Source of the DNA: Acidimicrobiia bacterium
GTDB taxonomy: Bacteria > Actinomycetota > Acidimicrobiia > Spongiisociales > UBA5794
Assembly: GCA_030065575.1 (NCBI GenBank)
Contig: JASJDZ010000006.1
Coordinates: 21,722 to 85,721, forward strand
Direction: 5' to 3'
DNA length: 64,000 nt
The notes under the pieces are model-generated. The model was not told the DNA's origin. It did no database searches and worked only from the letters and a program-made list of their open reading frames with translations. The translations under genes were made by a program, and so were the position numbers. Positions 6,241 to 50,469 of this stretch are shown here, in pieces; the first letter of the stretch is position 1; each line of letters opens with the position of its first letter.

Positions 6241-6242
6241 AG

Positions 6243-6327
6243 TGTCGGAGAGAGGACTCGAACCTCCACGGGACAATGTCCCACTAGGCCCTCAACCTAG
6301 CGCGTCTACCAATTCCGCCACTCCGAC
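6243..6327 (-). tRNA. tRNA-Leu (anticodon GAG), class II with long variable arm
   Basis: Reverse complement GTCGGAGTGGCGGAATTGGTAGACGCGCTAGGTTGAGGGCCTAGTGGGACATTGTCCCGTGGAGGTTCGAGTCCTCTCTCCGACA. Acceptor GTCGGAG/CTCCGAC, anticodon stem CTAGG/CCTAG with loop TTGAGGG, variable-arm hairpin GGGACA/TGTCCC, and T-loop TTCGAGT. CCA is not encoded. Confidence 0.9.
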
Positions 6328-48771: not shown

Positions 48772-49050
48772 CTAGTTCTTCAGCCGCGCCAGGAGCTTCG
48801 TTCGCTTTGCCTCCAGCTTCAGCCTCTTCCGCCTCAGGTCGTCGACATGCTTCGAGAATCGAGCCACGTCGCTCGCCGTCTCCCGAGCATCAGCCCGATC
48901 GATCGGGCTACCGCTCACCGCCGCATCGCGCTGCGTATCGTCGTTGAGGTGCTCGTGATAGATGAGTTCCTCCGCCGCCAGTGTCTCGGCTCGTTCCAAA
49001 GCGGCGATCTCATCGGAGAGCTTGAAGAGCTTGCGTTCAATTCGCTTCAT
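48772..49050 (-). CDS. Hypothetical small coiled-coil protein
   Basis: 92-aa ORF with charged heptad-like ends (KRIERKLFKLSDEIAALERAE..., DLRRKRLKLEAKRTKLLARLK). No motif recognised. Confidence 0.4.
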   Translation of the reverse strand: MKRIERKLFKLSDEIAALERAETLAAEELIYHEHLNDDTQRDAAVSGSPIDRADARETASDVARFSKHVDDLRRKRLKLEAKRTKLLARLKN

Positions 49051-49095: not shown

Positions 49096-49179
49096 GCCGG
49101 GATGGCGAAATTGGTAGACGCGACGGACTCAAAATCCGTTGGGTGAAAACCCGTGGGGGTTCGAGTCCCCCTCCCGGTA
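49096..49179 (+). tRNA. tRNA-Leu (anticodon CAA), class II
   Basis: GCCGGGATGGCGAAATTGGTAGACGCGACGGACTCAAAATCCGTTGGGTGAAAACCCGTGGGGGTTCGAGTCCCCCTCCCGGTA. Acceptor GCCGGGA/TCCCGGT (G1-U72), anticodon stem ACGGA/TCCGT with loop CTCAAAA, variable hairpin GGGT/ACCC, and T-arm GGGGG-TTCGAGT-CCCCC. CCA is not encoded. Confidence 0.9.
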
Positions 49180-49180
49180 C

Positions 49181-49660
49181 TCAGAATCTCGCCTACTCGG
49201 CGAGATTCTTCGCGACGGCAAGCTCCCCTCCCGGAGCGTGAGTTCTCCTTTCTGCCCGCGAGCTGGGGCTACAGCGACTCGGTAGGCCGATTCGCCCTGT
49301 CGGACAGGAACGGAGAAGGTTCGAGTCCCCCTCCCGGTACTCAGAATCTCGCCTACTCGGCGAGCTCCTTCGCGACGGCAAGCTCACCATCCGTACCGCT
49401 CAGCCAATTCTCTGCCCACGAGCTGGGGCTACAGCGACTCGGTAGGCCGATTCGATGTAGTCGACCGGAGGTGGAAAGGTTCGAGTCCCTCGCCCTACAC
49501 CCGGAACCTCGCCTACTCGGCGACGTTCCTTTCCACGTCAGGCTCCGCTCCCGGAGCGTGAGTCCACTTTTCTGCCCGCGAGCTGGGGCTACAGCGACCC
49601 GGTAGGCCGATTCGCCCTGTCGGACAGGAACGGAGAAGGTTCGAGTCCCCCTCCCGGTAC
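49181..49660 (+). repeat. Three head-to-tail 160-nt repeats (A 49181-49340, B 49341-49500, C 49501-49660), each ending in a copy of the tRNA-Leu 3' terminal segment
   Basis: Direct alignment of the three units. A and C end with GGTTCGAGTCCCCCTCCCGGTAC, identical to tRNA positions 49158-49180. B ends with GGTTCGAGTCCCTCGCCCTACAC. All share the core TCTGCCCRCGAGCTGGGGCTACAGCGACYCGGTAGGCCGATTCG. Confidence 0.9.
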
Positions 49661-49674
49661 CAGCATGCATGCCG

Positions 49675-50172
49675 CTATGTGCGGTCGTTGGCAGTGGCAC
49701 CCAGCCGGATGTAGACCCTGCGGATAGCTTCACTGGCCACCATCAATCCGACTGCCAGGAGCATCACATCGAGAAAGCCCCCAAGTTCGACACTGTCCCC
49801 AAAGACCAAGTCGACGGCCTCGAGGATGGCGAACTTCGAGAGGAACAGGATCAACCAGACACCGAAGACTCCGACCGCCTTGTAGGCGCCCCCGTCCTTG
49901 GACTTGGCCCATCCCCACACTCGATGCTTCGCAGCAGTGATCAGGGCAAAGAGGCCCTTGAGGAGCACCCCGGTGAGTATGGAGATCGTGAACGAATCAA
50001 TCACCTTGGCGTCTGAGTACTCGACGTAGAGGTTGAGAACGACGGTGTAGACCAGGATGTCCGTCAACCAGGACACGTAGATCCGCTGGCTCCGACTCAG
50101 TGCCGGATTCCGATCTATGTCGGCTGGAAGCGAATCTGGAAGCTCTTCTGCGGATACAGGGTTGTTCGCCAT
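49675..50172 (-). CDS. Small integral membrane protein, unknown function
   Basis: About 4 TM helices (ILVYTVVLNLYV, ISILTGVLLKGLFALI, VGVFGVWLILFLSKFAIL, FLDVMLLAVGLMVA). ATG at 50172 (MANNPVSAEEL) is more plausible than the Cys/Trp/Arg-rich extension to 50292. Confidence 0.5.
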   Translation of the reverse strand: MANNPVSAEELPDSLPADIDRNPALSRSQRIYVSWLTDILVYTVVLNLYVEYSDAKVIDSFTISILTGVLLKGLFALITAAKHRVWGWAKSKDGGAYKAVGVFGVWLILFLSKFAILEAVDLVFGDSVELGGFLDVMLLAVGLMVASEAIRRVYIRLGATANDRT

Positions 50173-50469
50173 GACCCAGCAGACCATAGTGCAAGCCGCC
50201 CACGACCAGGAGGGCCTATGCGACATGGCCGCTCTCTTGCATTGGCGGATCTGAGGCCCATATGTGGGGGCGGTGTGGTGCGGGAACCGCAAGCATTGTG
50301 GCGGTGGGCCATCGGCACTACGGCGTGTGGTGCGAGAGCCGCAATGTGTGCCGACAGCCCAGCCGCCGGTGAAGTCGCGCCGCGCTGGAAGGGTGCGGAC
50401 CCGACTTGCGCCAATTGTGCAGAGTGAGGGCCCAACGCGGTAGGGACAAAATGCCGGGCTTCGTGCGAG

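Follow-up and report, generated by a model that had tools for sequence, protein, structure and literature searches.

Displaced fragments of tRNA 3' ends mark the integration of mobile elements (PMC4383910, PMC9897764), and gene-less remnants bounded by att sites, known as CIMEs, as well as tandem accretion have already been described (PMC5704250). In the ssrA islands of Dehalococcoides, insertion takes place in the T-loop; the 3' end recurs as a 20-bp direct repeat, with a conserved 15-bp motif just upstream (PMC3146451). [quoted passage not shown] The original prediction held that this array cannot be placed in any described class, which was too strong, since tRNA-end repeats, CIMEs and tandem accretion are all on record (PMC5704250, PMC3146451). 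The best explanation, as judged from sequence comparison, is that the array is probably repeat DNA without an RNA or protein product of its own, and we put the probability that it is a gene-less att-type remnant now behaving as a minisatellite at about one half.

The tRNA-Leu(CAA) gene and its three-unit array

The features of the locus are listed below, in several cases with the source of the assignment in brackets; L-numbers, here and in the following, denote sequences from other assemblies.

49096..49180, + strand: tRNA-Leu(CAA), intact, without encoded CCA (ARAGORN; Rfam RF00005, 59.4 bits)
49158..49180, + strand: X0, the 23-nt tRNA end that forms the repeated segment (exact-match search)
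49181..49340, + strand: unit A, 160 nt (alignment; informative-site comparison)
49183..49209, + strand: HP-A, terminator-type hairpin of the tRNA, 11 bp with the loop TACTC (folding; empty site of L023)
49343-49369 and 49503-49529, + strand: repeats of HP-A that open unit B and unit C, respectively
49251..49294, + strand: core of unit A (alignment, pattern search)
49411-49454 and 49571-49614, + strand: copies of the core in units B and C, respectively
49318..49340, + strand: X_A, exact copy of the tRNA end, with the non-tRNA motif GGAACGGAGAA directly before it
49341..49500, + strand: unit B, 160 nt (alignment)
49478..49500, + strand: X_B, diverged copy of the tRNA end, GGTTCGAGTCCCTCGCCCTACAC
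49501..49660, + strand: unit C, 160 nt (alignment)
49638..49660, + strand: X_C, exact copy of the tRNA end that closes the array (exact-match search)
48772..49050, - strand: 92-aa ORF with unassigned function, the left neighbour, outside the repeat
49675..50292, - strand: lineage-specific ORF; in GenBank a 165-aa protein, MDJ0663618.1

The limits of the tRNA gene are 49096-49179 according to Rfam and 49096-49180 according to ARAGORN. Tandem Repeats Finder reported a period of 160 with 3.1 copies at 49158-49660, and units A, B and C could be aligned without gaps at 160 nt each, which confirms the head-to-tail arrangement described in the original prediction. The segment X0 comprises the last 2 nt of the 5' T-stem, the T-loop, the 3' T-stem, the 3' acceptor strand, the discriminator and 1 further nt. 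The 23-mer GGTTCGAGTCCCCCTCCCGGTAC was found exactly at 49158, 49318 and 49638 and had 0 occurrences in shuffled sequence, and the copy in unit B is changed at 5 of its 23 positions, all in the 3' half, in agreement with the earlier description of exact copies in A and C and a diverged one in B. The array in the window has four tRNA ends but three unit bodies. In every unit the homology to the tRNA begins abruptly at GGTTCGAG, in the T-loop, and the identity falls from 23/23 to background at a single position. This boundary is identical across all lineages and follows a conserved motif; the non-tRNA motif CGGAAC-N-GRAGAA lies just 5' of the copies in four lineages (the window, L022, L034 and L038), and the 23-nt copy is exact in L022 and L038 as well. 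A direct repeat that starts in a loop of a tRNA and extends to its 3' end, with the intact gene on one side, is characteristic of an att-bounded element. An extended inverted repeat around the T-loop, considered as a recombinase core site, was not supported.

The numbers of differences given earlier for the units were all reproduced: A and C differ at 15 of their first 70 positions and at 1 of their last 90, and A and B at 2 within positions 1-45. Units B and C differ at 45 sites; in positions 1-41, A is identical to B at 10 of 12 such sites, and in positions 46-160 it is identical to C at 31 of 33. By this comparison unit A is a clean chimera of B-type sequence (positions 1 to about 45) and C-type sequence (about 46 to 160), and this indicates unequal crossing-over; the mosaic divergence that had been noted is thus real and is explained by one crossover. 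About 115 nt of unit A are almost identical to unit C. A 35-nt core pattern was found three times, with 0 occurrences expected, and the core is near-invariant only within this array. The hairpin allele of unit C (CCGGAACCTCGCC...GGCGACGTTCC) is common to the related genomes L037 and L035, and the comparison of unit C with L037 gave a z-score of 14.

Filled, empty and reshuffled alleles in relatives

Syntenic relatives were found by using the 92-aa ORF, which is conserved as the left neighbour, as an anchor, and tRNA-Leu(CAA) is identical or almost identical in every one of them. Relatives with the same gene order contain zero, one or several units of 137-188 nt plus the 23-nt copy; the copy number thus varies between relatives, a point that had been raised earlier, and within the sequence available the units were seen only at this tRNA-Leu locus. 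One species has two alleles on contigs that are otherwise near-identical. In the filled allele (L022, L024 and L033) a 211-nt insert lies exactly between two copies of the tRNA end, and in the empty allele (L023) the tRNA is followed by the same flank, with precise boundaries. In L022 no relationship could be detected between the body of the insert and the DNA that follows the second copy (z 1.2), and the layout is therefore copy, insert, copy, unrelated flank. This is the pattern of an att-bounded insertion; a fresh tandem duplication would leave two related bodies.

Two types of unit, in varied order and states of decay, are found in L022, L027, L034, L035, L037, L038 and the window. The more distant relatives L028-L032 and L036 have no units, and in the close relatives L023 and L035 the units are absent or decayed. 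What comes after the unit in L027 is no more than 13 nt of T-loop-like sequence, GAGAGAGTTCATG, which could be a decayed copy or a microhomology that seeded a duplication. L038 contains a 57-nt direct repeat which reaches 33 nt past the tRNA; the unit body of L038 is identical to that of the window at 16 of 36 positions, which is near-random, and the distal copies are perfect. When the unit body was compared, as possible native DNA, with the outgroup L036, the sole significant similarity was the double hairpin after the tRNA. In its head-to-tail units, its copy number varying among relatives and its chimeric unit, the array has the features of a minisatellite.

The array is surrounded by tad pilus and trp genes (5 kb on each side), and its G+C content of 0.60-0.62 is the same as that of the flanks. 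The array and a conserved element beside trpA enclose a variable slot, which is here occupied by the ORF at 49675..50292. This slot contains a different gene, or none, in each lineage, and is a small gene-gain hotspot. The original prediction stated that no integrase or island lies next to the array; this holds for the integrase but must be qualified for the adjoining slot. No integrase was found within 5 kb on either side of the array, no box-II motif of tyrosine recombinases in any frame of the whole 64-kb window, and the Pfam and PHROG summaries gave only housekeeping families, and no integrase, among the top 25 listed. An integrase is needed for an island, not for a CIME. Foreign cargo, a compositional signature and a related autonomous element with the same attP were likewise not found.

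The donor element or attP that had been suggested was not detected in IMG/VR, where four patterns gave either no match or complete tRNA-Leu genes, nor in phages and plasmids, where BLAST with the array gave no match, and one metagenome scan (conserved block plus T-loop) added nothing beyond a single further contig of the L022 species. A core 20-mer, a pattern blind to L022-type units, gave 19 matches in a scan of a genome collection, all of them chance matches in coding genes of unrelated bacteria. A search for the right-hand junction in other assemblies by means of the neighbouring ORF returned no contig on record. Within the sequence available, the units are confined to this locus and to one narrow clade. 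In an IMG/VR provirus, a mobile element with a gene for a D5-type primase is bordered by a tRNA-Leu(CAA) that shares the 22-nt end.

Coding potential and RNA structure of the units

The units had been considered non-coding, and the comparison with relatives agrees. The period of 160 is not divisible by 3, indels of 1-2 nt separate the lineages, the differences between units are distributed over the three codon positions as 9/6/6, and no gene is called at the position of the array in any relative. Coding on either strand was rejected: one plus-strand frame stops at the TAG of GGTAGG in the units of the window and of L022, but indels interrupt it in L027 and L034, and it has no codon-position bias.

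Across 7 versions, pairing in the opening hairpin of the units amounts to 86%, and two pairs are changed on both sides. The two compensatory pairs reported earlier between A and C are real; a pair (C.C) is, however, broken in unit C and two are broken in unit B, which had gone unmentioned. HP-A is also present directly after the tRNA at the empty site of L023. This hairpin is the terminator of the tRNA, duplicated together with the tRNA end, and the claim of selection on structure can be kept for it only, not for the core hairpin or the acceptor-like pairing described below. The shared core is indeed present three times, but pairing in its hairpin amounts to 72%, 4 of the 8 pairs being broken in half of the sequences, and the hairpin is lost in L022, L027, L034 and L038, where its 5' strand is replaced. 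The z-scores for folding were -1.8 (A), +0.1 (B; +0.08) and -2.6 (C), and unit B folds no better than shuffled sequence. We saw no sign of RNA function, and the units appear to contain no conserved structure beyond the terminator hairpin.

The original prediction had offered, as one of three options, tRNA-3'-mimic RNA modules. In this reading the units would be co-transcribed with the tRNA and cut to sRNAs of about 160 nt with a T-arm- or acceptor-like end, which would act as enzyme decoys or as sponges of the 3'ETS type. Such trailer-derived sRNAs exist, 3'ETS-leuZ of E. coli being one; the minimum-free-energy fold of unit A contains a 7-bp acceptor-like pairing (GCUGGGG/UCCCGGU), and the counts for the whole structure are slightly above those of shuffles. 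We nevertheless regard this reading as unlikely. Each unit begins with a hairpin of the terminator type, promoter-like sites were not found, and the search against Rfam 15 that had been proposed gave no match to a unit at E<=10 at the locus and only two tRNAs in the whole window at the gathering threshold. The T-stem is not rebuilt in the units, with 2 bp flanking the T-loop and a T-hairpin without covariation, and the structure moved by 2 nt as a register-shift control scored 0.132 compared with 0.141 for the one proposed. L022, L027, L034 and L038 have lost or displaced both the core hairpin and the acceptor-like pairing, and the state of the locus in L023 and L035, as well as the z-score of unit B, also count against this option. 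We also considered a fold resembling a tRNA in which GCTGGGG would form the 5' acceptor strand, and rejected it because this strand is not conserved: L022 and L027 have GCTCGCG there.

Origin of the array

The history that we favour would start with a recombination inside the T-loop of the tRNA, which would leave a gene-less stretch of about 140-190 bp with the same tRNA end at either border, present as the intact tRNA on one side and as the displaced 23-nt fragment on the other. Such bounding would be the product of site-specific integration by a tRNA-targeting integrase (attL and attR), and a unit would be a CIME-like, gene-less att-bounded remnant, or little beyond the attachment region of the element. 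Ordinary recombination between the repeated tRNA ends and between the unit bodies then followed: as the comparison of relatives shows, units are gained, lost, reshuffled and made chimeric, and the distal tRNA-end copies decay or are, presumably, re-homogenised. The locus thus behaves like a minisatellite, with copy numbers that vary from strain to strain. Among the three original options, stacked att-site scars come closest to this history, although no integrase, donor or attP was found in the sequence searched. The diverged copy in unit B is unlike the product of a recent site-specific event, and the founding event could instead be an illegitimate duplication. Perfect distal copies require gene conversion or recurrent exchange, which the favoured history has to assume.

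A plain minisatellite, formed with no integrase at all, is a lesser possibility that we entertain tentatively. An illegitimate or microhomology-driven tandem duplication, with its left breakpoint in the T-loop by chance, would have taken in the tRNA end together with the terminator and the native DNA downstream of it, and unequal crossing-over and gene conversion would have done the rest. The clean B/C chimera of unit A, the variation of copy number and unit order among strains and species, and the lack of integrase, cargo and compositional signal all fit this account, as do the 13-nt stretch of L027 as a possible seeding microhomology and the repeat in L038 that runs 33 nt beyond the tRNA. 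Tandem duplication, however, predicts equal numbers of ends and bodies, which the window with its four ends and three bodies does not have; the flank after the second copy in L022 is not detectably related to the insert, one T-loop boundary after a conserved motif is kept in all lineages, and distal copies are perfect despite near-random unit bodies. The last of these observations would be accounted for if the units were the smallest integrative elements yet seen, gene-less, of about 140-190 bp and hardly larger than an attachment site, which an integrase specific for the T-loop of tRNA-Leu(CAA) would excise, reinsert and stack in trans, or, in a variant, with transcripts acting as tRNA-end mimics; two types in differing order and filled and empty alleles would be explained as well, yet we hold this to be doubtful. 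As active miniature cassettes, gene-less units of attP size would be excised and reinserted at the T-loop site by a tRNA-Leu-specific integrase encoded elsewhere in the genome, and new ones would stack at the tRNA. Filled and empty alleles in one species, two cassette types in different order between genomes, perfect distal copies in diverged units (L038 included) and unit sizes of 160-211 bp, within the range of attP (about 240 bp in lambda), are compatible with this. The cassettes are improbable in view of a single locus and a single narrow clade in all data searched, an integrase that was not seen, and lineages that hold only decayed units (L023 and L035); moreover, the crossover in unit A, the one event that can be reconstructed, is homologous and lies inside the unit body, not at a tRNA-end copy, and circles of 160 bp would presumably be hard to synapse.

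The remaining option of the original prediction, a decayed tandem array of tRNA-Leu genes, draws on the fact that 160 could be the sum of a tRNA (85) and a spacer (75) and that MAFFT sets GCTGGGG..GCGA..GGTAG against the acceptor and D-arm of the tRNA. It is very unlikely, as the 62 nt before each copy have only 12-20 identities with the 5' two-thirds of the tRNA (about 17 expected) and no excess likeness to the tRNA 5' part compared with shuffles in any of 8 unit versions (p 0.23-0.95), and the identity ends at one position. Nor are the units tRNA genes, as had been stated: no tRNA model matched them at E<=10, and ARAGORN called 2 tRNAs in the whole window and none in the units. An assembly artefact, either a collapsed or expanded repeat or a chimeric join, was considered because the assemblies L020, L025 and L026 break exactly at the tRNA or its end and because units A and C are nearly identical over about 115 nt. 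We find it hardly credible. L021, a strain variant assembled independently from another sample, has the tRNA, unit A and the beginning of the following unit at 97.5% identity, the same architecture is present in seven further assemblies from other pipelines or assemblers, and the three units are distinct in sequence. Since independent assemblies have the same layout, we concluded that the architecture is real; the copy number of three is that of the assembly, and the near-identity of A and C makes the count and order dependent on read length. CRISPR arrays, type III toxin-antitoxin repeats, miniature derivatives of IS200/IS605, guide RNAs of TnpB/IscB, bridge RNAs, homing spacers of CRISPR-associated transposons, group II introns and YrlA RNAs were also considered and set aside, as their period, size or required proteins, as generally described, do not fit.

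If the array is an att-type remnant turned minisatellite, it would be a compact natural case in which duplication of a tRNA end gives rise to a self-perpetuating minisatellite, and it would show how far an att-bounded remnant can shrink. The array would be of greater consequence if the units were mobilised in trans, since integrase-driven elements would then gain a miniature class comparable to MITEs. The array is, as its distribution suggests, lineage-restricted, and nothing points to a new RNA function or a broadly distributed system. For annotation, it is a warning that tRNA fragments, assembly breaks at tRNA genes and apparent "conserved cores" reflect recent recombination here, not selection.

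Comparison with known systems

3'ETS-leuZ of E. coli and the array both consist of non-coding sequence that directly adjoins a tRNA-Leu gene on its 3' side. The former is one short spacer, set free by RNase E, without repeats or a tRNA-end copy, whereas the array is repeated and contains such copies. With VNTRs such as the mycobacterial MIRUs it has in common intergenic head-to-tail repeats, tens to hundreds of bp in length, in an actinobacterium, strain-variable in number and with chimeric units. MIRUs are dispersed over many loci without being tied to a tRNA gene, whereas the array occupies one locus and each of its units closes with a tRNA fragment.

The likeness to att-bounded elements is closer. 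CIMEs and accreted elements (Pavlovic et al. 2004; PMC5704250) are also att-bounded remnants that have lost the genes for integration and transfer and stand in tandem at the 3' end of the target gene, but they are decayed ICEs or IMEs of kilobase size for which mobilisation in cis is demonstrated, and the units described here are about 10-100 times smaller. In comparison with tRNA/tmRNA islands (Williams 2002; Islander, PMC4383910), the stretch between copies is only 137-188 bp, without integrase or gene, compositional difference or donor found; the arrangement is nevertheless that of attL and attR at the T-loop sublocation, with the intact tRNA and the displaced 3' fragment at opposite ends, a repeat of 23-24 nt that extends from the T-loop to slightly beyond the discriminator, an abrupt boundary, and filled and empty alleles. 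The units of the Dehalococcoides ssrA islands (PMC3146451) are kilobases long and carry rdhA and the serine recombinase DsiB, and those of the present array are 160 nt, mutually homologous and without a known recombinase. Both form tandem units downstream of one tRNA-like gene, with repeats of about 20 bp of its 3' end, a motif upstream of each repeat, the T-loop as the point of insertion and a strain-variable number of units, and in Dehalococcoides, as here, there are units without an integration module.

Layout and internal history of the array

The array attached to tRNA-Leu(CAA) is real and statistically robust, and its original description was accurate, all counts being reproduced. Tandem Repeats Finder reported a period of 160 with 3.1 copies, and no gaps are needed to align the three units.

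49096-49180, tRNA-Leu(CAA)
49181-49340, unit A, exactly 160 nt, directly 3' of the tRNA and head-to-tail with unit B
49341-49500, unit B, exactly 160 nt, head-to-tail with units A and C
49501-49660, unit C, exactly 160 nt, last of the three head-to-tail units

The tRNA's final 23 nt, GGTTCGAGTCCCCCTCCCGGTAC, are repeated exactly at the ends of units A and C (0 matches in shuffled sequence); this tRNA-end copy carries 5 changes in unit B. A near-invariant core, searched as a 35-nt pattern, occurs 3 times versus 0 expected, every unit begins with an 11-bp hairpin, and no further unit copies were found elsewhere in the 64-kb window.

The units gave no tRNA covariance-model match even at E<=10. 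Nor are they tRNA pseudogenes, as the 62 nt located 5' of each tRNA-end copy are no closer to the 5' part of the tRNA than shuffled sequence (8 of 8 unit versions); identity to the tRNA falls from 23/23 to background at a single position within the T-arm. A coding role was rejected, since differences between homologous units are spread 9/6/6 over the codon positions, lineages are separated by 1-2-nt indels, and no gene caller predicts a gene there in any relative. No Rfam family was matched.

The mosaic divergence noted in the original prediction is a real pattern. Units B and C are old, with 45 sites separating them (28% diverged); their closest hairpin alleles are each found in a different related genome. 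Unit A matches B at 10 of 12 sites in positions 1-41 and C at 31 of 33 in positions 46-160, and one unequal crossover of a B-type and a C-type unit explains it. It likewise explains the invariant look of the core and the last 90 nt, which were recently shared and not selected.

Related genomes at the same locus

Syntenic contigs of related genomes were reached via homologues of a 92-aa neighbour. The syntenic gene order is trpA, a variable slot, tRNA-Leu(CAA), the 92-aa gene and tadE. In some lineages a double hairpin, M7, replaces the single hairpin 3' of the tRNA.

Units at the syntenic locus (percentages give the identity between the 92-aa neighbour and its window counterpart)
L021, window's species, other sample: unit A at 97.5% identity; tRNA-end copy with 1 change; start of next unit differs
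L035, 94%: decayed units only; no second tRNA end
L034, 93%: one window-type unit; tRNA-end copy split by M7
L037, 92%: 46-nt partial unit, then a unit with the hairpin allele of window unit C
L022, L024, L033, 89%, three samples: a single insert of 211 nt, bounded precisely on each side by a perfect tRNA-end copy
L023, species of L022: tRNA, then directly the flank of L022, a clean empty allele
L038, 85%: 172-nt unit; distal copy perfect; repeat runs 33 nt past the tRNA, a 57-nt direct repeat
L027, 84%: a close relative of the L022 unit (z 51), then only a 13-nt T-loop-like stretch
L036, L028-L032, 80%: no unit

Across these contigs the number of units is zero, one or several. The units of the window, L034, L022, L027 and L038 are homologous, with the common blocks TTCGCNACGGCAAGCT, GTAGGCCGATTCGCC and CGGAAC-N-GRAGAA, the last lying immediately 5' of the tRNA-end copy. 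What a unit starts with depends on the lineage: the single hairpin, M7 or a 33-nt trailer. A single species has both filled (L022, L024 and L033) and empty (L023) alleles. As judged from the compared alleles, it is shown that units are gained, lost and reshuffled at the locus via recombination between repeats.

In L034 (1-150, reverse strand) a double hairpin of 40 nt, with CTCT on each side, splits the distal tRNA-end copy, which is 20/23 identical to the tRNA end once the hairpin is removed. The same double hairpin lies directly 3' of the tRNA in L022, L027 and L036, where compensatory changes keep both stems. It could be a terminator that has been displaced, or a small module that was inserted.

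Three independent assemblies (L020, L025 and L026) end inside or exactly at tRNA-Leu(CAA), a typical assembler break at a repeat, which suggests that short-read MAGs under-represent such arrays. The search of genomes and metagenomes that had been proposed did not find the element outside this clade: a genome-collection scan with a core 20-mer, a pattern that would miss L022-type units, gave only chance matches inside coding genes, and a metagenome scan with a conserved block plus T-loop recovered only the L022 species.

RNA structure and genomic surroundings

The core hairpin of the original prediction is confined to the window lineage; L022, L027, L034 and L038 have other sequence in place of its 5' strand and have lost the pairing, half of the sequences having 4 of 8 pairs broken. 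An acceptor-like pairing, GCUGGGG/UCCCGGU, occurs in the minimum-free-energy fold of unit A, and L022 and L027 have GCUCGCG at that place. In a register-shift control of the whole structure, moving the proposed pairing by 2 nt gave a score about as high (0.132 versus 0.141 unshifted). The T-stem is not rebuilt in the units, where only 2 bp flank the T-loop and a longer helix shows no covariation. Folding z-scores were -1.8 for unit A, +0.1 for unit B and -2.6 for the L022 unit, the last because of its two terminal hairpins.

The opening hairpin is the only structure kept: it is 86% paired, and one of its positions shows three different Watson-Crick pairs. Of the compensatory changes claimed for it, two pairs do change on both sides between units A and C, but one pair is broken in C and two in B. 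The hairpin also stands 3' of the tRNA at the empty site of L023, and is therefore the tRNA's terminator. No promoter-like site was found in the array. Given these failed structure tests, the lack of a promoter-like site and the absence or decay of units in close relatives, a dedicated RNA function is unlikely.

Left of the array lie tad pilus genes and the conserved 92-aa ORF, and right of it a lineage-specific ORF, in GenBank the 165-aa protein MDJ0663618.1, followed by trpA, trpB, trpF and trpC. G+C content is flat throughout the array region. Elsewhere the window carries housekeeping genes, with DNA polymerase I, uvrABC, pgk, rpsA and ABC transporters among the Pfam/PHROG families listed, and the tyrosine-recombinase box-II motif is absent from every frame of the window. 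The slot between the array and a conserved element 3' of trpA holds a different single gene per lineage, and is a small gene-gain hotspot adjoining the tRNA.

Window, 49661-50296: membrane-like ORF
L022-L024 (L022, 2550-3485): 311-aa ORF
L028-L031 (L028, 3304-3792): flavodoxin_5 gene
L027, L035, L036: no gene

The element just 3' of trpA (50297-50460) is non-coding and conserved near base-for-base in all syntenic relatives, including those without units. RNAalifold predicted two hairpins in it, of which one is long and shows GC<->AU compensatory changes. No Rfam family reached threshold; a minus-strand match to Scr3202, a Streptomyces sRNA, was the only one and weak (21 bits, E 0.55). The element could be a terminator of the trp operon, or an sRNA derived from a 3'UTR. 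The window's second tRNA, tRNA-Leu(GAG) (6242-6327, minus strand), has an ordinary GC-rich hairpin 3' of the gene and no tRNA-end copies or units.

Origin of the array

The array is most likely a lineage-restricted, unstable, non-coding repeat seeded on the tRNA 3' end. Its founding layout (tRNA end, short DNA, tRNA end) would have arisen by recombination in the T-loop. Its anatomy matches attL/attR, the junctions left by site-specific integration, of T-loop-targeting integrative elements: the repeat spans the T-loop to just beyond the discriminator with an abrupt homology boundary, a conserved non-tRNA motif stands immediately 5' of every displaced copy, and in L022 the DNA that follows the second copy shows no detectable relation to the insert. 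tRNA fragments are known as marks of integration events (PMC4383910, PMC9897764). The gene-variable slot beside the array fits, indirectly, an integration hotspot. We estimate the probability of an att-derived remnant with minisatellite dynamics at about 0.5.

Two points count against an integrase origin: neither an integrase nor cargo, a donor element or a compositional signal turned up, and the T-loop-like stretch of L027 could by chance have seeded an ordinary duplication. Plain duplication without an integrase is unlikely. A donor carrying the 23-nt sequence as attP did not come up in IMG/VR, in phages or plasmids or in one metagenome scan, and IMG/VR, phage and plasmid searches for the element returned nothing. 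That the units are gene-less integrative cassettes mobilised in trans is improbable, as are active mini-cassettes and RNA modules. Distal tRNA-end copies are perfect although unit bodies are near-random between lineages (16/36 over the 36 nt before the copy, window versus L038), in contrast to the changed copy of unit B and the loss of the copy in other lineages; explaining this takes gene conversion by the tRNA or else recurrent exchange inside the copy.

On an IMG/VR provirus contig (L039, 1383-3587), a tRNA-Leu(CAA) whose final 22 nt are the same stands just upstream of a D5_N/Pox_D5 primase-helicase gene. This suggests that the same tRNA end serves as an integration site in another bacterium, and the D5-type primase element bordering that tRNA in the provirus is likewise indirectly in keeping with a hotspot.

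Among documented systems, those that come closest to the att-derived remnant are the tandem ssrA islands of Dehalococcoides, some of which have no integration module and have been discussed as cis-mobilizable elements (PMC3146451); such elements (CIMEs), gene-less att-bounded remnants, and accretion are reviewed in PMC5704250. The array is most likely of a mundane nature: known att-bounded remnants and tandem accretion in miniature.
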